Source of the DNA: a virus
Lineage: Duplodnaviria; Caudoviricetes
DNA length: 64,000 bases
Virus record (IMG/VR): IMGVR_UViG_3300027983_002389
Direction: 5' to 3' (one strand)
This document shows positions 3,462 to 52,789 of this stretch, piece after piece. Under the pieces are notes generated by a model that was given only the letters and a program-made list of their open reading frames with translations, was not told the origin of the DNA and did not search any database. Positions within the stretch are counted from its first letter, which is position 1. Every line of letters starts with the position of its first letter. Both the position numbers and the translations under genes were made by a program.

Positions 3462-3551
3462 GGCGGGGTAGCTCAGTCCGTTAGAGCATTGTGAATAGGG
3501 ACCGAAAGGTTTACTAACATAAGGTCGGAGGTTAAAATCCTTCCCCTGCCA
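3462..3551 (+). ncRNA. tRNA-like RNA with hairpin insertion in the anticodon loop
   Basis: Acceptor GGCGGGG/CCCTGCC-A, D and T arms present; anticodon stem TTGTG/CATAA encloses 24 nt containing GACC-GAAA-GGTT. Confidence 0.7.
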
Positions 3552-3555
3552 CTTA

Positions 3556-6851: not shown

Positions 6852-6934
6852 GCGCTCGATGCTGAATTGGTTGCAGCTCCAGACTTTTAATCTGGTTCCG
6901 AAAGGACGTGTGGGTTCGAGTCCCACCGGGCGCA
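6852..6934 (+). tRNA. tRNA-Lys(TTT) with long variable arm
   Basis: Loop CTTTTAA; variable arm TTCC-GAAA-GGA. Confidence 0.75.
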
Positions 6935-7872: not shown

Positions 7873-7962
7873 TTTCCGGTACGCTAATTGGTAAGCGGCG
7901 AAGCTGTTAACTTCGTGCAATCCGTCTCGCACGGTATGAAGGTTCGAGTCCTTCCTGGGGAG
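7873..7962 (+). tRNA. tRNA-Asn(GTT) with long variable arm
   Basis: CGAAG-CTGTTAA-CTTCG; T arm GAAGG-TTCGAGT-CCTTC. Confidence 0.7.
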
Positions 7963-7987
7963 CTTGTTCCCGATAGGGAATAAAAAA

Positions 7988-8321: not shown

Positions 8322-8395
8322 CGGCATATGTTGTAGTGGTTTCTGCAAGCCGTCCTGATAAGACGGAAGTTCTGGTTCAATTCCAGGTATGCCGA
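8322..8395 (+). tRNA. tRNA-Ile(GAT)
   Basis: Loop CTGATAA. Confidence 0.85.
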
Positions 8396-8473
8396 CTGAA
8401 TTATGGAATTTATGGTGTAAAAAATAAAGACTTGCCGCACAGCAAAGAGTCTTGGATGGTACAAAATGATTAT

Positions 8474-10292: not shown

Positions 10293-10374
10293 GCCGGGTT
10301 CGCATAGCGGCGATTGCACAGGTTTTGTAAACCTGCGGAGTTATCCCTCGTGGGTTCGAGTCCCACACCCGGCT
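10293..10374 (+). tRNA. tRNA-Thr(TGT) with long variable region
   Basis: Loop TTTGTAA. Confidence 0.75.
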
Positions 10375-10403
10375 CTGAACATTTAACCTTTTGGGGAAAT
10401 ACT

Positions 10404-31071: not shown

Positions 31072-31742
31072 CTAAGTAGTTTTGGATGAAAATGCGATCT
31101 TCATCTGACATAAGATTATGGTCAAATTCCCAATGATGGTTTTTGCACATGGCAATCAAATTGTTGATGTGATTGATTTCACAAATCAAGGGATCTTTTG
31201 AAAACGAAGAGATGTCTTTAAGGGAAAAGAAAGAAAGTCAATCATGCCGCACGAAGGAAAGCCTACATGGAATGGAGAATACGTCAATTTTGGAGACATA
31301 GTGGGCAAGTTGTTTCCGGTATTGGGAGCCGAGCCATTTGTTATTGCCATAGAAGGCAGTGAAGATATGTTCTTCATGCTTTTCTCTGACGAGGAGAAGC
31401 TGCGAGACACCAGCACGAAATTTCTCAAGAAGTTGGGCGCACCAGAGAACCTTTTGAGCGTGGGACGTGTCACAAGTGAAGAGTTCGTTCAGTCCATGAT
31501 TGGCATGGGCATTCGACTCATGTGTGATCCGGTCGTAATTGACAACCACCACACCAAATGGGCAGAAATTGTTCGACAAGGCGACATTTACAAATACGTC
31601 GATGCCCAAAACAACTGAAGTGGATGAACAATTGCAAATTTCCAAAGCGTATTTGGAAAGTATTGAATCTGGCAGAAGGATTCAAAGCCGAGGGGTGGAC
31701 AATTATTTGCGGTTGTTCTTTGCTAAGGAAATTCAATTTTTT

Positions 31743-31844
31743 GATCGGATAACTCAGCGGCAGAGTCCACAGTGCGTTCGGGTGGTTTTATAGTTGCCAT
31801 TGCGAATAGCTGTGAGGTCACAGGTTCGAGTCCTGTTCCGATCA
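31743..31844 (+). ncRNA. tRNA-like RNA with extended stem replacing the anticodon loop
   Basis: GATCGGA/TCCGATC-A; canonical D and T arms; CACAG/CTGTG encloses about 37 nt. Confidence 0.7.
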
Positions 31845-31865
31845 TTTGGTTCCATACATACCAAT

Positions 31866-32495
31866 ATGGACGAGTTCAAGGATTTAGTTTATGTCAATGA
31901 AGAAGAAATCGACGGACAAGCCGGATGGTTGTGGCCCAAGGCCGATCTTTATGGTTGGCGGGGTATCTTTGCTAATTGGCGGGCAGAGCATAGGTGGGCT
32001 TATCTTGAACACATCAGGAATTTTGGAGTAGTTGTTCAAGCTGGAGGTCATTGTGGCTTGTTTCCCAGGTTGTTTGCAGGACTCTTTCAAAGGGTCTATA
32101 CCTTCGAGCCAGATGCTTTGAATTTCCATTGTCTAGTGCATAATTGCCAGCGAGACAATGTATTCAAAATGAATGCCGCTCTTGGAGCCGAGTGCAAGAT
32201 GATTGCACTACAAAAGTTCAAAGAGCCGGGCAACACTGGTACTCATGTCATAAACGGTCAGGGATTCATTCCCATGCTCACCGTTGACTGCATGAACTTC
32301 GACGCTTGTGATTTTTTGCAAGTCGATGTTGAAGGCTACGAGATCAATGTCCTAAAAGGCGCAAAGAAAACAATCCAGAAGTTTAAGCCCGTGTTGTCCG
32401 TTGAAAGAACAAATAAGGAAATCGAAGATTTCCTGAATCAATTTGGATATAATAGAGGTAGAACTGTCGAACTCGACACGATCTACTATGTTTAG
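31866..32495 (+). CDS. FkbM family methyltransferase
   Basis: VVQAGGHCG, VYTFEP, QVDVEGYE..VL.GA..TI. Confidence 0.85.
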   Translation: MDEFKDLVYVNEEEIDGQAGWLWPKADLYGWRGIFANWRAEHRWAYLEHIRNFGVVVQAGGHCGLFPRLFAGLFQRVYTFEPDALNFHCLVHNCQRDNVFKMNAALGAECKMIALQKFKEPGNTGTHVINGQGFIPMLTVDCMNFDACDFLQVDVEGYEINVLKGAKKTIQKFKPVLSVERTNKEIEDFLNQFGYNRGRTVELDTIYYV

Positions 32496-32847
32496 GAACG
32501 AACCCAAACGGTGCGTGATGGAAATAGGCGGCTATGATTTGATGTTCGATACGACAGACCCGAAAGGTTTATCGCAGCGAATAATGGACTTTGTGAATTG
32601 GCCAAAAGCCGTAATTGAAATGGTCGAACCTTTCGGATCAGATGAAGTCGATGATTTCTTTTGGTACAAGGATTTAGATTCTAAGCGTGGCTGGGACATG
32701 GAAGGAGCCGTGCCATCACTTGAAAACACAATGGTTTATTTTCTCATCCGAGAAGGACAATTGACTGTAGTTGTTGATAAAGAAATGGCTGATGCCATAA
32801 ATAACTTCATAGGAACGAACCCAAACGGTGCGGGAACTGCCTTATAA
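32488..32847 (+). CDS. hypothetical protein flanked by a 23-bp direct repeat of a tRNA 5' end
   Basis: TAGGAACGAACCCAAACGGTGCG at 32493 and 32810. Confidence 0.5.
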   Translation: MFRNEPKRCVMEIGGYDLMFDTTDPKGLSQRIMDFVNWPKAVIEMVEPFGSDEVDDFFWYKDLDSKRGWDMEGAVPSLENTMVYFLIREGQLTVVVDKEMADAINNFIGTNPNGAGTAL

Positions 32848-32901
32848 GCAGCTTACGATCTGATAAATCGAATATAGAGGGTTCAACTCCCTCCGTTCCT
32901 A
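32811..32901 (+). tRNA. tRNA-Ile with two anticodon arms (TAT and GAT)
   Basis: AGGAACG/CGTTCCT-A; CTGC-CTTATAA-GCAG then CGAT-CTGATAA-ATCG; T arm GAGGG-TTCAACT-CCCTC. Confidence 0.75.
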
Positions 32902-33200
32902 CTATGACATTATGACATGAGCAACAATAACAAGAACAAATACTACAAGTTTCCACCCCGCAAGCAGGTTCCTGTCGGCGGGGTTTGTCTTTTGTGTCAA
33001 TGCAATAGGCAAGTGCGAAAAGCAGCCCAGCCTTTTGTGCGAGGCATGGGTTTTCCTGCCTTGGCATGGGCTAGAATGCCGTTGATTTCTCCAGGTATGG
33101 TCTTCACTGGTGTCAATAACTTGACAGGTGAAGAAGAATCGTTCAAAGTACATCGTGCGTTTATCAGTATGCCGGATCGCAGTTCAGTAGAAAGAATAAA

Positions 33201-34097
33201 ATGAACATCACTCGCATTGCACCATCGCCAACTGGTGATATGCACATTGGCACAGCCAGGACTGCATATTTCAACTGGCTCGCAGCACGGGCCAATGGCG
33301 GCAAGTTTATTCTTCGTGTTGATGACACCGATCAGAAGCGGAACGATCCAGCTTACACAGAAGTCATTCTGTCCACTATGAAGTGGTTAGGTTTGGACCA
33401 CGATGAAATCGTTTATCAGAGTTCACGATTTGACGTGTACAAGGATGCTGCTGGACTTCTCGTGAAAGACGGTTGGGCAATTCCAAAGGATGGAGCCACG
33501 GTTTTCAAGCTGAAGCCCGATCATGTTTTTCCTTCTCATTGGAAGGATGAAATAAAGGGCGACATCAAAATCACCAAGGATGACATTTCTCATTTGGATG
33601 GAATGGTTCTGATAAAATCAGATGGAAGCCCTTCTTACAACTTCTGTTCGATTGTTGATGATTCGCACATGGGCGTTAACTTCATCATTCGAGGAGTGGA
33701 TCATATTACGAATACAGCAAGGCAGGTAATGCTTTGGGATGTTCTAAACAGTGGGCGTCCCCTTCCGAGGTTTGCTCATTTGGGACTTATATGTGTTGAT
33801 GGAAAGCCAATATCCAAGCGAGACGGAGCATCGAGCATGTTGAATTACATGAACGCTGGATATGATTCTGATGCTATGTTGAATTTTCTTGCTCGACTTG
33901 GTTGGGGTCCGACAAAGGACGACAAGTCCACGACGTTACTTCCGAGAGATAAGATGCTTGAATTGTTTCTGGTTTCTGGTAAGATGAGAAGCCAGCCAGC
34001 CAGCTTTGATGTTCGCAAACTGGAATCTTTTGATCGCAAGTACAAAGCACGCAAGGGCGCTTGGCGAACAGGAGAAAAGCTGATTCTTAACTCTTAA
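33201..34097 (+). CDS. gltX: glutamyl-tRNA synthetase, catalytic domain only
   Basis: RIAPSPTG.MHIG, LRVDDTD, IRGVDH, ISKR, NFLARLGW. Confidence 0.85.
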   Translation: MNITRIAPSPTGDMHIGTARTAYFNWLAARANGGKFILRVDDTDQKRNDPAYTEVILSTMKWLGLDHDEIVYQSSRFDVYKDAAGLLVKDGWAIPKDGATVFKLKPDHVFPSHWKDEIKGDIKITKDDISHLDGMVLIKSDGSPSYNFCSIVDDSHMGVNFIIRGVDHITNTARQVMLWDVLNSGRPLPRFAHLGLICVDGKPISKRDGASSMLNYMNAGYDSDAMLNFLARLGWGPTKDDKSTTLLPRDKMLELFLVSGKMRSQPASFDVRKLESFDRKYKARKGAWRTGEKLILNS

Positions 34098-36487: not shown

Positions 36488-38203
36488 ATGGTGATGGCTA
36501 ACAAGAATCTTTTCAAGTCCGAGCGTGGCTCGATTGTTCCGGCAACTGACGTTCTCAACGAAGCTGGTGGTACTGCATACAATTTGACTGCAAAGCAGGC
36601 TCTTGCGCAGTACGTTTGCACTAGCTGTTTGAACGGCACCTACTACACGTCTGCCAAGACGCAACTGGACACTGTTCGTCAGTTGTTTACTGAGGTCGAG
36701 CCTGAGTTCCTTGGGCAGTTGGCTGTGTACTCGCACGAAAAGTCCTTCATGAAGGACTTGCCTGCTCTATTGGTCGCATTCCTGGCATCTGACAAGGGTG
36801 CTGGTGGTGGTCCTACTACGGCAACACAGGAGCGGAAGCTGAAGACGCTTCGTAAGGTTTTCCATCGTGTCATCGACAACGGCAACATGCTGCGCAACTT
36901 TGTGCAGATGATTCGTTCGGCGTCATTTGGTCGGAAGTCCTTTGGTGAAGTGCCTCGCAAGTTGATTCGGGACTGGTTCGACAATAAGTCTCCGGCTGGT
37001 ATTTTCTTCCAAAGCATCGGGAATAGCCCGTCACTGGCAGATATTATCAAGCTGACCAAGCCAAAGCCAAATACGCCTGAAAAGGCTGCTGTGTTGGCTT
37101 ATTTGCTGGGTGCAGAAACCGTTGAAGGCGAAGATGGCAAGTTGCTGGTTCGTCGTTATCTCGACCGTGTTGATAAGCAGGTTAAGGTTGCATACTCGCA
37201 GCCTTATTCCAATCTGCCGGAAATCATTCGTGAATACGAAGCGTGGAAAAAGGACAAGAGCCTCCCGGTTCCTGCCATCAACTTCCGTTTCTTGGACAAC
37301 GAGAAGCTGTCAACTGCTCAATGGGCAGATATTGCTTCTAAGGCAAATTGGCTTACGACCCTGAAGAACCTCAACGCATATGCCGACCACGGTGTATTCG
37401 GCGTTGAAGGCATGACTGACATGATCGCCGCACGTCTCAGCAATGCTGACGAAGTGCGTAAGGTACGGGTATTCCCATATCAGATCATGGTGGCTTACCT
37501 CGCAACCGACACGGTACTTTCGCTTCCGCCCAAGGTCCGTAATGCCATTCAAGATGCTATGGAAGTGGCATGTGAGAACGTGCCAGCATTGGGGAAGGTT
37601 AAGTTCTTCCCGGACGTTTCTGGCTCAATGAGAAGTGCAATTACGGGCGACCGTGGTTCGGCAACTTCTAAGGTTCGGTGTGTTGACGTGGCAGCACTGT
37701 TCGCAGTGGCAATGCTTCGTCGCAACCCGGAAGCGGAAGTAATTCCGTTTGAGCAGACGGTTCGTGAGCTTACTCTGAACCCTCGTGACAGCATCATGAC
37801 CAACGCCACGAAGCTCGCTTCGATTGGTGGTGGTGGAACCAATTGTTCGGCACCGCTTGCTTTGCTCAATGCAAAGAAGGATTGGTCGGCTGACGTGTTG
37901 GTTTATATTTCGGACTATGAGTCTTGGGTGGATAGCACGGGCACGGGCTACCAAGCTGGCAATGGCACAGCACTGCTCAATGAGTGGGTGAAGTACAAGA
38001 GCCACAACAAGAATGCCAAGCTGATTTGTATCGACCTGACCCCTCGTACAAATCATCAGGTCAAGGTCAAGGAACACGATGATATTCTCCAGGTCGGTGG
38101 ATTCTCTGACAACGTATTCAACGTGATCGCAAGATTCGTTGAAGGTGGTTGGTCAAAGGATTTTTGGGTCAAGGAGATTGAAAGCGTTCCACTGGATACT
38201 TAA
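36488..38203 (+). CDS. rsr: Ro60/TROVE-vWA RNA-binding protein (Rsr-like)
   Basis: NEAGG.AY, GTYY, VFPYQ...AY, vWA DVSGSM, GGGT, SD.ESW, GFSD.VF. Confidence 0.9.
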   Translation: MVMANKNLFKSERGSIVPATDVLNEAGGTAYNLTAKQALAQYVCTSCLNGTYYTSAKTQLDTVRQLFTEVEPEFLGQLAVYSHEKSFMKDLPALLVAFLASDKGAGGGPTTATQERKLKTLRKVFHRVIDNGNMLRNFVQMIRSASFGRKSFGEVPRKLIRDWFDNKSPAGIFFQSIGNSPSLADIIKLTKPKPNTPEKAAVLAYLLGAETVEGEDGKLLVRRYLDRVDKQVKVAYSQPYSNLPEIIREYEAWKKDKSLPVPAINFRFLDNEKLSTAQWADIASKANWLTTLKNLNAYADHGVFGVEGMTDMIAARLSNADEVRKVRVFPYQIMVAYLATDTVLSLPPKVRNAIQDAMEVACENVPALGKVKFFPDVSGSMRSAITGDRGSATSKVRCVDVAALFAVAMLRRNPEAEVIPFEQTVRELTLNPRDSIMTNATKLASIGGGGTNCSAPLALLNAKKDWSADVLVYISDYESWVDSTGTGYQAGNGTALLNEWVKYKSHNKNAKLICIDLTPRTNHQVKVKEHDDILQVGGFSDNVFNVIARFVEGGWSKDFWVKEIESVPLDT

Positions 38204-38216
38204 TCCAGCTAGGTTT

Positions 38217-38250
38217 TGTTGAGGACCGGGTTGCCGGTCCTCAACTTTTT
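38217..38250 (+). terminator. terminator-like hairpin
   Basis: GTTGAGGACCGG-GTTG-CCGGTCCTCAAC-TTTTT. Confidence 0.75.
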
Positions 38251-38372
38251 GGCGGGTAGCTCAATGGTAGAGCAAAAGTAAAAACAAATCTAAGCGATAT
38301 TTGGGCTTCGGCCATGCAGTTTGGATTACATTAACCAACTTTAGGTTGTGTGTTCGATTCACACCCCGCCAG
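38250..38372 (+). ncRNA. Y-RNA-like tRNA mimic, copy 2 (adjacent to Ro60)
   Basis: TGGCGGG/CCCGCCA-G; AAAGT/ACTTT encloses the stem shared with 14791. Confidence 0.72.
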
Positions 38373-45746: not shown

Positions 45747-47381
45747 ATGATCTACGAAAACACAAACAATACCACCTTCGTCACTACGGCGATTGATTAT
45801 CCCAATGCCTTGCCGCATATCGGCACTGCTTTCGAGAAGATCGGAGCCGATGTCTACGCACGCTTCCGACGATTCCAAGGTCGTGACGTTATTTTCTCGA
45901 TGGGCAATGACGAGAATACCGTCAAGGTTCTCAAAGCAGCTAAAGAGGCAGGGCAAGAGCCAAAGCCTTATGTTGATGACATGGCAAAGGCATTCAAAGA
46001 GGTTTGGGGACAACTCAACATCTCTTATGATGACTTCATTCAAACTAGCGAGGATCGCCATTGGTTGGGCGTACAGCGATTCTTACGAGCAGTCAACGCT
46101 GCTGGATATATCCAGAAGCGTCCATACAAGGCTTTGTATTGCGAGGGCTGTGAAGAGTTCAAGAGTCCAAACAGTCTGGACTACGCAAAGCGTTGCCCTA
46201 ATCACACCGATTCGCCGCTTGTTGAACGAGAGGAAGAGAATTACTTCTTCCTTTTGTCGGCGTTCAAGCAACGTGTTGCCGATTTGATTTATCCGACTCC
46301 GTTTTCGACAATGTTTTTGAGTGTCGAGCCTGAATCTCGATATAACGAAGTCACAAACTTCATCAATACGGACCTGACTGATATTTCAATCAGTCGTCGC
46401 AATGAAGGTTGGGGCATTCCTATTCCTTGGGATGACACTCAAGCCACATACGTTTGGTTCGATGCTCTATTGAACTATTTGACGGTGATTGGATTCGGCG
46501 ATGATTGGGAGAAATTCCATAAGTATTGGCCTGCTGAAGTTCATTTCATCGGCAAGGATATTACTCGATTCCACTGTGCTTTGTTTCCAGCAATGTGTAT
46601 GGCGTACAACGAAGGCTGCGACAAGTTGGGTGAGCCTCAGTATAAGCTGGAAGGTTATCCGCAGCGTGTTTTTGCGCATGGCTTCGTCAATCAGAAGAAA
46701 GGCAATCAGGTTATCAAGGTTTCCAAGAGTGGAGAATCTATTCGTCCAATGGAACTGATCGAACAGTTCGGTTCTGATGCGTATAGATATTATTTCCTGT
46801 CGAAGTTCAACTACGATACGGATGGCGATTACAGTTTGGAACATTTCAAAGACGTGTATAATTCTGATCTCGCCAACTCCTTGGGTAACCTTGTGAGTCG
46901 TACCGTGGGTATGAGCTTGCAGTATTTCGACGGAAAGATTCCAGCTATTGCCGCTGAAGGACAATTGTGGTTCAACGAGCAGGTTGCGACCGAGTACGAA
47001 CAGTTCATTGTTGAATGCTGTTCATTCCGTCATGCCATTGAAATGACATGGAAGATCATCTTTGAAGCCAACAAGCTGATCGCAGACTCAAAGCCTTGGG
47101 AGTTGATTAAGTTGCCGGGTAACACCTGTGGTCAGGTATTGGGGCAGCTTGCTGGTGGCTTGAGGATCATCAGTCTATTGATCCGACCTTTCACTCCAAC
47201 GGTAGCCGAGAAGATTTACACGACATTCCAATGGGCTGAAGGTTGGAATGAAGTTGATTGGGAGTTCGCAAAGAAGTTGGCAGCAAACAATTTCCTGGGA
47301 CTCGAAAATGGTATTGTCTTCAACAGAAATGTTTTGGATGATGCTGGTAAGTTTCCAGTGCTTTTTCCGAGAGTGAATTAA
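45747..47381 (+). CDS. metG: methionyl-tRNA synthetase
   Basis: TTAIDYPN..PHIG, YVWFDALLNY, IGKDI.RFH, KVSKS, DLAN.LGNLVSR. Confidence 0.95.
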   Translation: MIYENTNNTTFVTTAIDYPNALPHIGTAFEKIGADVYARFRRFQGRDVIFSMGNDENTVKVLKAAKEAGQEPKPYVDDMAKAFKEVWGQLNISYDDFIQTSEDRHWLGVQRFLRAVNAAGYIQKRPYKALYCEGCEEFKSPNSLDYAKRCPNHTDSPLVEREEENYFFLLSAFKQRVADLIYPTPFSTMFLSVEPESRYNEVTNFINTDLTDISISRRNEGWGIPIPWDDTQATYVWFDALLNYLTVIGFGDDWEKFHKYWPAEVHFIGKDITRFHCALFPAMCMAYNEGCDKLGEPQYKLEGYPQRVFAHGFVNQKKGNQVIKVSKSGESIRPMELIEQFGSDAYRYYFLSKFNYDTDGDYSLEHFKDVYNSDLANSLGNLVSRTVGMSLQYFDGKIPAIAAEGQLWFNEQVATEYEQFIVECCSFRHAIEMTWKIIFEANKLIADSKPWELIKLPGNTCGQVLGQLAGGLRIISLLIRPFTPTVAEKIYTTFQWAEGWNEVDWEFAKKLAANNFLGLENGIVFNRNVLDDAGKFPVLFPRVN

Positions 47382-51565: not shown

Positions 51566-52789
51566 ATGATTCGTCCAATCCCACTCGCTCATGGCGTCGG
51601 GTTTTTCTCAATGGATCGTTTGCCGCAATATGCTGGCAAGTATCGTGAGGAAAATGTGGGTCGCTATTGGAACTACTATGTCACGCCAGAGTGCCAAGAG
51701 TGGCCAGAGGCGGTGACGTACAAAGGTCCGTATGTGATTGACGGGTTTTCCCCCAATCTCAATAAGAGCCTGCACGTCGGGCATCTACGTCAATTGGCTT
51801 TGGCAAAGTCTTTGGAGAGCATTATGAACCATGCTCAACAAAATCCTCACGCCAAGTTTGTATCCCTATTGGGCGCATCTCAGGGAGTTTTTCAATACGC
51901 TACTGAGCAACTGAATGGTTGGTTCGACTTCTTGAACTTCCATCCTGAATTGCACTATGACGTATTGATGCCACGAGATCAGGAGATCGTTCCTCGTTAC
52001 AAAACCAAGGTGCCAGTCTCTATCTCAACTGACTTTAACGGTAAGCCTTTTGAACATGAGGAAGAGTGTGAAGTGTGGGCCGGTCCCAAAGGGCCTGTGA
52101 TCGTCGTTCGTTGGGATGGTCGTCCTTTGTATGCCTTTCAGGACATTGCCTTCTCGAAGGTGGTGGGTCCAACTCACTACATCACTGGCACGGAGCAGCA
52201 GGAGCATTTTGCCAACCTGGGGCTTGGCGATAAACATCTGCCTATGGGTCTTGTATTGGGTGCTGACGGCAAGAAGATGAAGTCTCGTACTGGCGATAGT
52301 GTCACAGCTAAAGAAGTATTGGATCAGATTGTTTCTCAGCTTGATCCAACAGATGAACCGAACAAGCTGGCGTGGAATGTATTGGCGTGGAATTTTCTTC
52401 ACGTCGCTCGTTCCAAGTCGGTGAAGTATACCCCGGAAGAATGGACAAAGTCGGATGCTCCGGGCATGTATATTTCGTATACTTATGCTCGCATTCAATC
52501 GGCTTTGGCTGGAGAGTCTTTTGAAGAAGGCGATCTGACACAATCAGATGCAGATTTGTTGGGCTTGGCTCGTCAGCACGCCTACGCCTTGCAGCGTAGC
52601 ATTGATTCTCTCGATCCGGCAATGTTGGCAAATTACGCTTACGATCTGGCATCCAAGCTGGGTACGGCATATCATGGGGAAAAGATCAAGGGTGGACGCC
52701 CAGGCTTTAAGAACGCCTTGATGCAAGCGGTGTGGCATCTTCGTTTGTGTATGCACCAACTTGGCATGTTTCCTTTGGAGAAGATTTAA
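51566..52789 (+). CDS. argS: reduced arginyl-tRNA synthetase
   Basis: FSPNLNK.LHVGHLR, EQ..HF, KMKSRTG, Y..YTYARI.S, DALR-like C-terminus. Confidence 0.85.
   Translation: MIRPIPLAHGVGFFSMDRLPQYAGKYREENVGRYWNYYVTPECQEWPEAVTYKGPYVIDGFSPNLNKSLHVGHLRQLALAKSLESIMNHAQQNPHAKFVSLLGASQGVFQYATEQLNGWFDFLNFHPELHYDVLMPRDQEIVPRYKTKVPVSISTDFNGKPFEHEEECEVWAGPKGPVIVVRWDGRPLYAFQDIAFSKVVGPTHYITGTEQQEHFANLGLGDKHLPMGLVLGADGKKMKSRTGDSVTAKEVLDQIVSQLDPTDEPNKLAWNVLAWNFLHVARSKSVKYTPEEWTKSDAPGMYISYTYARIQSALAGESFEEGDLTQSDADLLGLARQHAYALQRSIDSLDPAMLANYAYDLASKLGTAYHGEKIKGGRPGFKNALMQAVWHLRLCMHQLGMFPLEKI

Follow-up and report, generated by a model that had tools for sequence, protein, structure and literature searches.

A five-arm tRNA-Ile(UAU) gene in a huge phage, with a conserved GAU-bearing extra arm that may serve isoleucine charging

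The 64,000-nucleotide stretch of phage DNA analyzed here (the window; IMG/VR record IMGVR_UViG_3300027983_002389, Caudoviricetes) carries on its plus strand, at 32811-32901, a 91-nt gene for an isoleucine transfer RNA, tRNA-Ile(UAU), in which a second anticodon-like arm is inserted between the anticodon arm and the T arm. The regular anticodon arm (arm 1) displays UAU and the extra arm (arm 2) a 7-nt loop centred on GAU; the CCA end is not encoded. The gene probably represents a functional phage tRNA reading the rare Ile codon AUA through the UAU of arm 1, and it is almost certainly a real and conserved five-arm tRNA, the design occurring in several hundred phage contigs and in many bacterial genomes. 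Very probably the loop of arm 2 is functionally constrained. As to the role of this arm, it is tentatively proposed that its GAU may be read by isoleucyl-tRNA synthetase (IleRS), so that a UAU tRNA would receive isoleucine without TilS and lysidine. The features on which the following account draws are:

32811-32901, plus strand: whole five-arm tRNA-Ile(UAU) gene (RF00005), with homologues at L001:5613-5704, L002:5606-5703 and, on the minus strand, at about 1013-1104 of L551
32811-32817 with 32894-32900, plus strand: acceptor stem, AGGAACG with CGTTCCT, 7 Watson-Crick pairs
A8 and A9, plus strand: read from the sequence between acceptor stem and D arm
32820-32834, plus strand: D arm, 3-bp stem CCC/GGG, loop AAACGGTGC with GG
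32836-32852, plus strand: arm 1 (decoding anticodon arm), A/C mismatch and 4 bp, i.e., CTGC (32837-32840), loop CTTATAA (32841-32847; CUUAUAA) and GCAG (32848-32851), with the anticodon UAU at 32843-32845 flanked by U33 and A37
32853-32855, plus strand: linker TTA (UUA) between arm 1 and arm 2
32856-32870, plus strand: arm 2 (extra arm), 4-bp stem CGAU/AUCG and 7-nt loop CUGAUAA, i.e., CGAT (32856-32859), loop CTGATAA (32860-32866) and ATCG (32867-32870), with GAU at 32862-32864
32871-32876, plus strand: spacer AAUAUA from arm 2 to the T stem, comparable in length to a class-I variable loop
32877-32893, plus strand: T arm GAGGG-UUCAACU-CCCUC, from the sequence
32894-32901, plus strand: acceptor 3' strand and discriminator A73 (32901)
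32964-32998, plus strand: terminator-like hairpin with T run (consensus scan), about 60 nt downstream of the five-arm tRNA
8322-8396, plus strand: canonical tRNA-Ile(GAU) of the same phage (ARAGORN, Rfam)

A preliminary description of this DNA had recognized a two-arm tRNA at the same place, and apart from small details every element was found where it had been put. Acceptor stem, both arms, T arm and A73 are as described there, while the linker given as TT is actually TTA and follows an A27/C43 mismatch; the canonical CU-NNN-AA form ascribed to both loops of the window's copy can be read directly (CUUAUAA and CUGAUAA). The tRNA model of Rfam (RF00005) covers the gene over its full length (model positions 1-71) with 43.8 bits at a gathering score of 29, arm 1 corresponding to the anticodon arm of the model and arm 2 to a 20-nt insert in the variable region. 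ARAGORN, intron mode included, makes no call for the five-arm gene. The gene nevertheless possesses a 7-bp acceptor stem, a 5-bp T stem, a T loop of the UUCRANY type and a 7-nt anticodon loop with U33 and a purine at 37, as well as all characteristics of the five-arm family, i.e., UAU loop, GAU-centred 7-nt extra hairpin, 5-6-nt spacer and A73. Its core is atypical in having a D stem of only 3 bp and an A at position 8, which in tRNAs is usually U. Since the thermodynamic minimum-energy fold of the window's gene contains neither arm 2 nor the D stem, support for arm 2 is comparative only.

The comparative support comes from a plain MAFFT alignment of 30 diverse members (less than 72 % identical to each other) and the homologue L001, in which 25 of the 26 proposed pairs show double-sided changes. 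In this alignment, 89.4 % of cells pair compared to 54.6 % in shuffles, and the covariation score of 0.855 contrasts with 0.20 in shuffles (0 of 500 reaching the observed value) and 0.16-0.19 for slid partners. Double-sided changes were found in all 7 pairs of the acceptor stem (99.5 % of cells paired), in 5 pairs of arm 1 and in 4 pairs of arm 2, a fifth arm-2 pair being without covariation support in the same alignment. Across the family the T stem is paired in 99.3 %, and the D helix is the weakest (65 % paired). The linker between the two arms varies from 0 to 9 nt, the spacer from arm 2 to the T stem comprises 5-6 nt in 304 of 316 members, and the discriminator is A in 311 of these. U33 is constant in arm 1, and A37 nearly so. 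One subfamily is distinguished by only one nucleotide between acceptor and D stem.

Relatives close to the window display the same behaviour. Two syntenic ones, L001 and L002, were reached through the neighbouring GluRS-like protein (see below); a metagenome contig (L551), representing a third member of the window's lineage, came from the second metagenome pattern, the first one having matched nothing. The 92-nt homologue on the 340-kb contig L001 differs in acceptor stem, arm 1, arm 2 and T stem, in each case by compensatory changes, and has an arm 2 with stem CAGU/ACUG and loop CAGAUAA. In L551, arm 2 consists of the stem UGGG/CCCA and again the loop CAGAUAA. Both share with each other a compensatory U-A to C-G change in arm 1, and their D arms are of the same form as in the window. 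The version of L002 is 98 nt long and has the arm-2 loop CUGAUUA. Thus, three unrelated arm-2 stems (CGAU, CAGU and UGGG) carry the loops CUGAUAA, CAGAUAA and CAGAUAA in the window, L001 and L551, respectively, the loop staying C-N-GAUAA while the stem changes.

Beyond this lineage, the search for the same architecture proposed in the preliminary description yielded the design in phage contigs, in cultured phages and in bacterial tRNA arrays. With a loose architecture pattern, 84 of 122 matches listed from IMG/VR are complete tRNA-like genes of the five-arm design. A stricter pattern produced at least 120 matches in bacterial genomes, 113 of the 120 listed being tRNA-like; the bacterial carriers listed are mainly Acidobacteriota, whose arrays hold as many as 38 tRNAs within 8 kb, and Rhodobacteraceae, in which the genes are solitary. 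Five cultured phages possess the five-arm tRNA, which is annotated as tRNA-Ile in Sinorhizobium phage Phosso and Levilactobacillus phage ENFP1 and unannotated in Synechococcus phages S-SRM01 and S-SKS1 and Lactobacillus phage LpeD. Together with the ARAGORN miss, the absence of annotation in three of these five implies that an AUA decoder is systematically overlooked in inventories of phage tRNAs and in analyses of codon adaptation.

Because the gene is conserved, both arms covary and the family is large, the gene is neither a singleton nor a mis-assembly, an outcome by which the preliminary description would have considered itself refuted, and relatives keep both arms with compensatory stem changes. 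The functional RNA envisaged there as one of two possibilities is supported on the same grounds. Of the roles suggested there for the second arm (decoy, IleRS identity element, alternative conformer), that of an IleRS element would agree best with the data. It is hardly conceivable that the gene is a non-functional relic, i.e., a pseudogene or a recombination scar in a tRNA array: the missing ARAGORN call, the thermodynamically weak arm 2 of the window and an open reading frame (ORF, 32443-32847) overlapping the first 37 nt of the tRNA would agree with such an origin, but not the compensatory changes in every helix, the occurrence of the design in hundreds of genomes and a loop that stays the same while its stems vary.

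Purifying selection acts on the GAU loop, which is tied to the UAU anticodon. The first pattern had imposed the GAU motif, and sampling was repeated without that constraint. Scans anchored on the D arm and the UAU loop only retrieved 90 + 106 non-identical genes from two clades, and all 196 listed genes have a GAU-centred loop of 7 nt on a stem of 3 bp or more, with 24 distinct stem sequences; their variable region measures 21-34 nt, with 5-6 nt from arm 2 to the T stem. Conversely, an anticodon-free scan (hairpin loop plus T arm) gave 102 non-identical matches listed, among which 94 are UAU tRNAs (a few of them with G37 or C33 in arm 1) and none is a tRNA with another anticodon bearing the hairpin. 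The broadest scan combined the loop CUUAUAA with any long spacing to the T arm; 52 of the 119 matches listed were already known loci, the visible ones from the GAU-pattern scan, and 47 were new tRNA-like genes, 21 of which have GAU-centred loops with other flanks (UAGAUCG, UAGAUUG etc.). Among the matches listed, GAU is displayed by roughly 95 % of those cloverleaf UAU tRNAs that possess an extra arm.

Two further odd layouts of UAU tRNA-like genes were observed in phage contigs, the one 75-77 nt long with the anticodon hairpin at the place of the D arm, the other having, ahead of the T arm, a long stretch that is unpaired or G-rich (loci L501, L502, L505, L513, L515, L517, L519, L520, L526, L530-L532, L538; L484, L497, L521, L550).

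The arm-2 loop of the window's five-arm gene, CUGAUAA, recurs unchanged as the anticodon loop of the tRNA-Ile(GAU) that the phage encodes at 8322-8396. A recent origin from that tRNA-Ile(GAU) was rejected, since there is no similarity outside the loop. The recombinant of two Ile tRNAs that the preliminary description had offered as its other possibility is, as a recent event, likewise not borne out, given a body unlike that of tRNA-Ile(GAU) beyond the loop and an old and widespread design. The window's loop is moreover an exception in a family in which most arm-2 loops read CAGAUUA, i.e., with A at '33' and U at '37'. Since U33 and a purine at 37 are missing, arm 2 of most members, judged by its loop, cannot be a normal decoding loop. 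The earlier statement that both loops together cover AUA/AUC/AUU therefore does not extend to the family. Two working anticodon arms with switching stackings, arm 1 reading AUA and arm 2 AUC/AUU, would be compatible with the perfect anticodon loop of the window's arm 2 (U33, A37) and with the spacing of arm 2, 5-6 nt and T stem, which is that of a canonical anticodon arm and variable loop. Such a tRNA is improbable, however: A occupies '33' in the sister copies and in about 90 % of the family, with U at '37' in most, the arm-2 stems comprise only 3-5 bp, and the phage already has a tRNA-Ile(GAU).

Two other interpretations of the paired arms were discarded. Loop-loop pairing between arm 2 and arm 1 (AUA/AUU with UAU) would be prevented by linkers of 0-3 nt, which do not allow kissing, and would leave the invariant G unexplained. 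For a short intron, with one of the arms spliced out, the intron mode of ARAGORN finds no model, and no archaeal-type bulge-helix-bulge is evident.

Long extra arms are otherwise characteristic of class-II tRNAs (Leu, Ser, Tyr). In the 192 Leu, 236 Ser and 73 Tyr long-arm tRNAs from the same DNA (n=501), loops are mostly 3-5 nt and spacers to the T stem mostly 1-3 nt long, and a GAU-centred 7-nt loop occurs in none of the 501. The five-arm gene, with its 7-nt loop, 6-nt spacer and UAU anticodon, thus lies outside class II. As a separate observation, 175 of the 367 tRNAs called "Leu" by ARAGORN in these tRNA-rich loci measure no more than about 74-78 nt and have a short variable region (e.g., L334, L339, L344); these short class-I-like Leu tRNAs are most visible in acidobacterial tRNA arrays.

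ATA accounts for 16 % of the Ile codons in the window (87 ATA among 9974 codons) and is absent from the cell-like genes for MetRS, Ro60, the ArgRS-like fragment and an M16 peptidase. Its meaning was assessed by codon exchange between the window and a sister genome (31 orthologous ORFs, 7621 aligned codons): ATA is matched by ATT in 24 cases, by ATC in 9, by Val codons in 13, by ATG in 4, by TTA in one and by CTA in none, and TTA exchanges with TTG, CTA and CTG in the same alignment. ATA evolves as isoleucine in this phage. If the tRNA is used in translation, this pattern argues against a reading as Leu or Ser, as in nev-tRNA. It is accordingly very improbable that the gene encodes a class-II-like tRNA charged by LeuRS, SerRS or TyrRS via the long arm, with AUA being recoded. 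The long extra arm together with A73 would fit such a tRNA, and nematode nev-tRNA-Ile(UAU) provides a precedent (PMC3333845, PMC4300185); yet ATA exchanges with ATT/ATC and Val codons rather than with Leu or Ser codons, the arm geometry is unlike that of all 501 genuine class-II tRNAs examined, and GenBank annotation software names the homologues tRNA-Ile.

Bacterial decoding of AUA normally needs the essential enzyme TilS, because in the textbook tRNA a single anticodon loop is used by the ribosome and, in the case of most synthetases, also for charging. In the tentatively proposed function of the five-arm tRNA, arm 1 would decode AUA, while arm 2, as a selected copy of the anticodon arm of tRNA-Ile(GAU), would offer IleRS its usual GAU. 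A C-G pair present in many members and A73 would complete the set of Ile identity elements. UAU, which is poorly accepted by most bacterial IleRS, would thereby be bypassed, allowing charging with isoleucine in the absence of TilS and lysidine. With a little less assurance, one may further propose that the two anticodon jobs are split between the arms, the ribosome reading the UAU of arm 1 and IleRS the GAU of arm 2, probably by a swap of stacking. The layout of D arm, 1 nt, arm 1, 0-9 nt, arm 2, 5-6 nt and T arm places arm 1 canonically relative to the D arm and arm 2 canonically relative to the T arm. Stacking under the D stem would be open to either arm, with the other projecting from the hinge, which suggests one stacking geometry for charging and another for decoding.

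The biochemistry of IleRS provides the background for this proposal. The E. coli enzyme charges UAU tRNA poorly; a Trp residue (W890 in S. aureus, W905 in E. coli) stacks on base 34, and Arg or Lys is needed at this place for good recognition of UAU (PMC3575796). Mycoplasma mobile IleRS has Arg instead of that Trp, and the exchange W905R or W905K lets the E. coli enzyme accept UAU (PMC3575796). Determinants of E. coli tRNA-Ile are G34, A35, U36, t6A37, A38, A73 and the pairs C29-G41, C4-G69 and U12-A23, t6A37 being a strong determinant for bacterial-type IleRS (PMC9976931). If arm 2 is read in place of arm 1, the window's gene offers G, A, U, A and A together with A73, but departs from the E. 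coli set in having A-U at 4-69 and C-G at 12-23. At the arm-2 pair equivalent to 29-41, 292 of 316 members (92 %) have C-G, with the neighbouring pairs varying freely, though the counts for this pair and for A73 were drawn from sequences that are related and in part were selected by motif. Among the genuine Ile(GAU) anticodon arms of the same loci, 66 % have C-G there, compared to 26 % of arm 1 and 2-33 % of six other isoacceptors; the window's own copy has G-C at this position, unlike the majority of the family. When arm-2 stems were compared, within each locus, with the anticodon stems of the tRNA-Ile(GAU) found alongside, a correlation above permutation was seen for 28-42 (p = 0.002) and 30-40 (p = 0.04) only, in data that are non-independent. 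Apart from this comparison, 29 of the 125 genuine tRNA-Ile(GAU) in acidobacterial arrays (e.g., L331, L333, L340) were found to have C33 (TCGATAA or CCGATAA).

A full bacterial-type IleRS is encoded in the sister phage G006 (853 aa, TIGR00392 with 741 bits at a cut-off of 621; L479:7873-10434), 6.6 kb downstream of the sister's five-arm tRNA. At the syntenic place the window lacks this gene and one neighbouring ORF, with the indel located between 39641 and 40097. The sister's enzyme retains the zinc-knuckle motif K-C-x-R-C-W, i.e., the Trp contacting base 34, and by that single-residue rule it would be of the GAU/LAU type and not adapted to UAU. No IleRS is present in the five complete genomes of cultured phages with the five-arm tRNA, and therefore the host enzyme must charge the tRNA there.

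A number of observations weigh against a reading of arm 2 by IleRS. TilS was detected above cut-off in 5 of 5 bacterial genomes with the five-arm tRNA, which in these organisms is therefore an additional and not the only AUA decoder; an argument for Ile identity from a sole AUA decoder failed for this reason. The position of a variable arm would be far from the site where IleRS grips the anticodon, so that a rearrangement would be needed. The prevailing loop CAGAUUA, with its A at '33', carries U at '37', and most members consequently lack t6A37. In the widest scan only N-A-G-A-U remains constant, loop positions 6-7 varying among the matches listed. In the window, arm 2 is weak (2 GC and 2 AU pairs) and missing from the minimum-energy fold. 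Four of the 47 new genes listed from the broadest scan are cloverleaf UAU tRNAs whose extra arm lacks GAU, and about 18 are UAU tRNA-like genes in other odd layouts; one of the four, L543, has a body resembling the window's tRNA and yet ACGG-AAAGA-CCGU as arm 2. Six class-I UAU tRNAs (71-72 nt) in phage loci indicate that the arm is not indispensable. Finally, most of the family statistics derive from related and partly motif-selected sequences.

Arm 2 might instead be a selected handle for a partner other than IleRS, or a structural element, with charging occurring through other elements or by a UAU-tolerant IleRS. Candidate roles would be recognition by a tRNA-modifying enzyme of phage or host, protection against or a decoy for an anticodon nuclease, or stabilization of the core by a fifth arm. 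This alternative, considered unlikely on balance, would be in line with a constant core of A-G-A-U instead of a full Ile loop, the conserved A at '33' and a U at '37' that excludes t6A. The existence of class-I UAU tRNAs and of extra arms without GAU, the TilS kept by bacterial carriers and the unusual core (A8, 3-bp D stem and, in one subfamily, the one-nt gap between acceptor and D stem) also speak for it. To our knowledge, however, there is no candidate for such a partner; the strict link to UAU, A73 and the C-G pair that genuine Ile(GAU) arms also have are all indicative of the isoleucine system, and an invariant GAU would be needless in a purely structural arm.

The window (45 % G+C) contains about 42 tRNA genes, located on the plus strand. 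No GenBank phage matches the window, neither near nor distant BLAST with the locus or with the tRNA finding one, and an exact 34-mer scan of IMG/VR was likewise without result. The source is a huge phage, because an identical MetRS was found on a 462,616-bp contig. This MetRS (45747-47381; TIGR00398, 391 bits) contains no ATA codon, so that comparing it with 94 distant homologues carried no information on the meaning of ATA; its best named cellular homologues are from Planctomycetota (46-50 % identity), possibly a hint to host or donor. A fragment resembling ArgRS (407 aa, with DALR domain) is located at 51566-52789, and an RlaP-family protein is also encoded. The GluRS-like protein used to reach the relatives (298 aa, 33201-34097), 300 nt downstream of the five-arm tRNA, consists solely of a GluRS/GluQRS-type catalytic domain (PF00749, 213 bits), reaches neither the GluRS nor the GluQRS cut-off of NCBIfam, and is kept at 91 % identity in two relatives.

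Upstream, a tRNA frame at 31742-31845 is separated from the five-arm tRNA by an insertion of about 970 bp (31849-32816), which holds an ORF for an FkbM-type methyltransferase and the aforementioned ORF 32443-32847; in the sister genome the counterpart of this frame directly precedes the five-arm tRNA. The latter ORF (134 aa) is without Pfam or PHROG match and enters the tRNA gene by 37 nt, its TAA stop lying inside the arm-1 loop. The frame at 31742-31845 and another at 3462-3552 carry inserts in the anticodon loop, of about 37 nt and 17 nt, respectively. Small hairpins in the variable region, unusual for class-I isoacceptors, are found in tRNA-Lys(UUU) (6852-6934), tRNA-Asn(GUU) (7873-7963) and tRNA-Thr(UGU) (10293-10375), which are 83-91 nt long; their loops are GAAA-type and others, with no copy of the cognate anticodon.

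A Ro60/TROVE gene (36488-38203) is followed by a tRNA-framed RNA (38250-38372; Rfam tRNA, 51.5 bits) in which a 58-nt insert replaces the anticodon loop and which looks like a YrlA-type Y RNA; the sister genome G006 has a 122-nt twin at the same place (106134-106255). For the five-arm gene itself, assignment as a Y RNA or YrlA-type tRNA mimic was ruled out, as its arm 1 is a canonical anticodon loop.

The five-arm tRNA-Ile(UAU) family is apparently undescribed, as full-text literature searching did not turn up any tRNA-Ile in which a second arm resembles an anticodon arm. Should the GAU of arm 2 indeed be read by IleRS, presentation of one triplet to the ribosome and another to the synthetase would constitute a new solution to AUA decoding and a new kind of identity element. 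It would also provide a natural scaffold for orthogonal tRNAs with decoding and charging separated, and would equip phages and mobile tRNA arrays with portable, TilS-independent AUA decoding in any host. Since the design is present in cultured phage-host pairs (S-SKS1, S-SRM01, Phosso, ENFP1, LpeD), the proposal is directly testable.

Among known systems, TilS-independent class-I tRNA-Ile(UAU) has been described for M. mobile (Taniguchi 2013, PMC3575796) and, as mentioned in a passage of PMC9976931 citing Tomikawa 2018 and Uesugi 2022, for lactic acid bacteria. The five-arm tRNA resembles the M. mobile type in its UAU reading AUA and in A73, independence of lysidine being a feature of the latter and proposed here. 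M. mobile-type tRNAs have four ordinary arms and the adaptation resides in the enzyme (Trp to Arg/Lys), whereas the five-arm gene has the extra GAU arm. The short variable loop of that type (4-5 nt) is replaced by 24 nt from arm 1 to the T stem. An IleRS with Arg or Lys is not found in the only one examined, that of the sister phage G006 (R-C-W), though the host's enzyme may differ. Nor are the carriers devoid of tilS: all five bacterial ones examined have it.

With class-II tRNAs and with nev-tRNA, the five-arm gene shares a fifth arm between anticodon arm and T arm. It differs from class II by a 7-nt loop with GAU compared to 3-5 nt, and by a T-stem spacer of 5-6 nt compared to 1-3 nt. Nematode nev-tRNA-Ile(UAU), which combines a long arm with a UAU anticodon, is charged with Leu in vitro (PMC3333845, PMC4300185); while nev-tRNA carries Leu, ATA of the phage evolves as Ile, as indicated indirectly by codon exchange. 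Allo-tRNAs, non-canonical cloverleaves from metagenomes and phages (PMC5389517), are similar in having an unusual architecture, a long extra arm and unexpected anticodons, but possess 8/4 or 9/3 acceptor/T branches and serine-type arms, in contrast to the canonical 7/5 of the five-arm gene. A hairpin copying a cognate anticodon loop is known from the operator in E. coli thrS mRNA, an anticodon-arm mimic bound by ThrRS (PMC9976931) and read there by the anticodon-binding site of the synthetase. Mimics of the thrS type reside in mRNA and regulate translation, whereas arm 2, if it acts as proposed, would be a mimic that sits in a tRNA and serves its charging.

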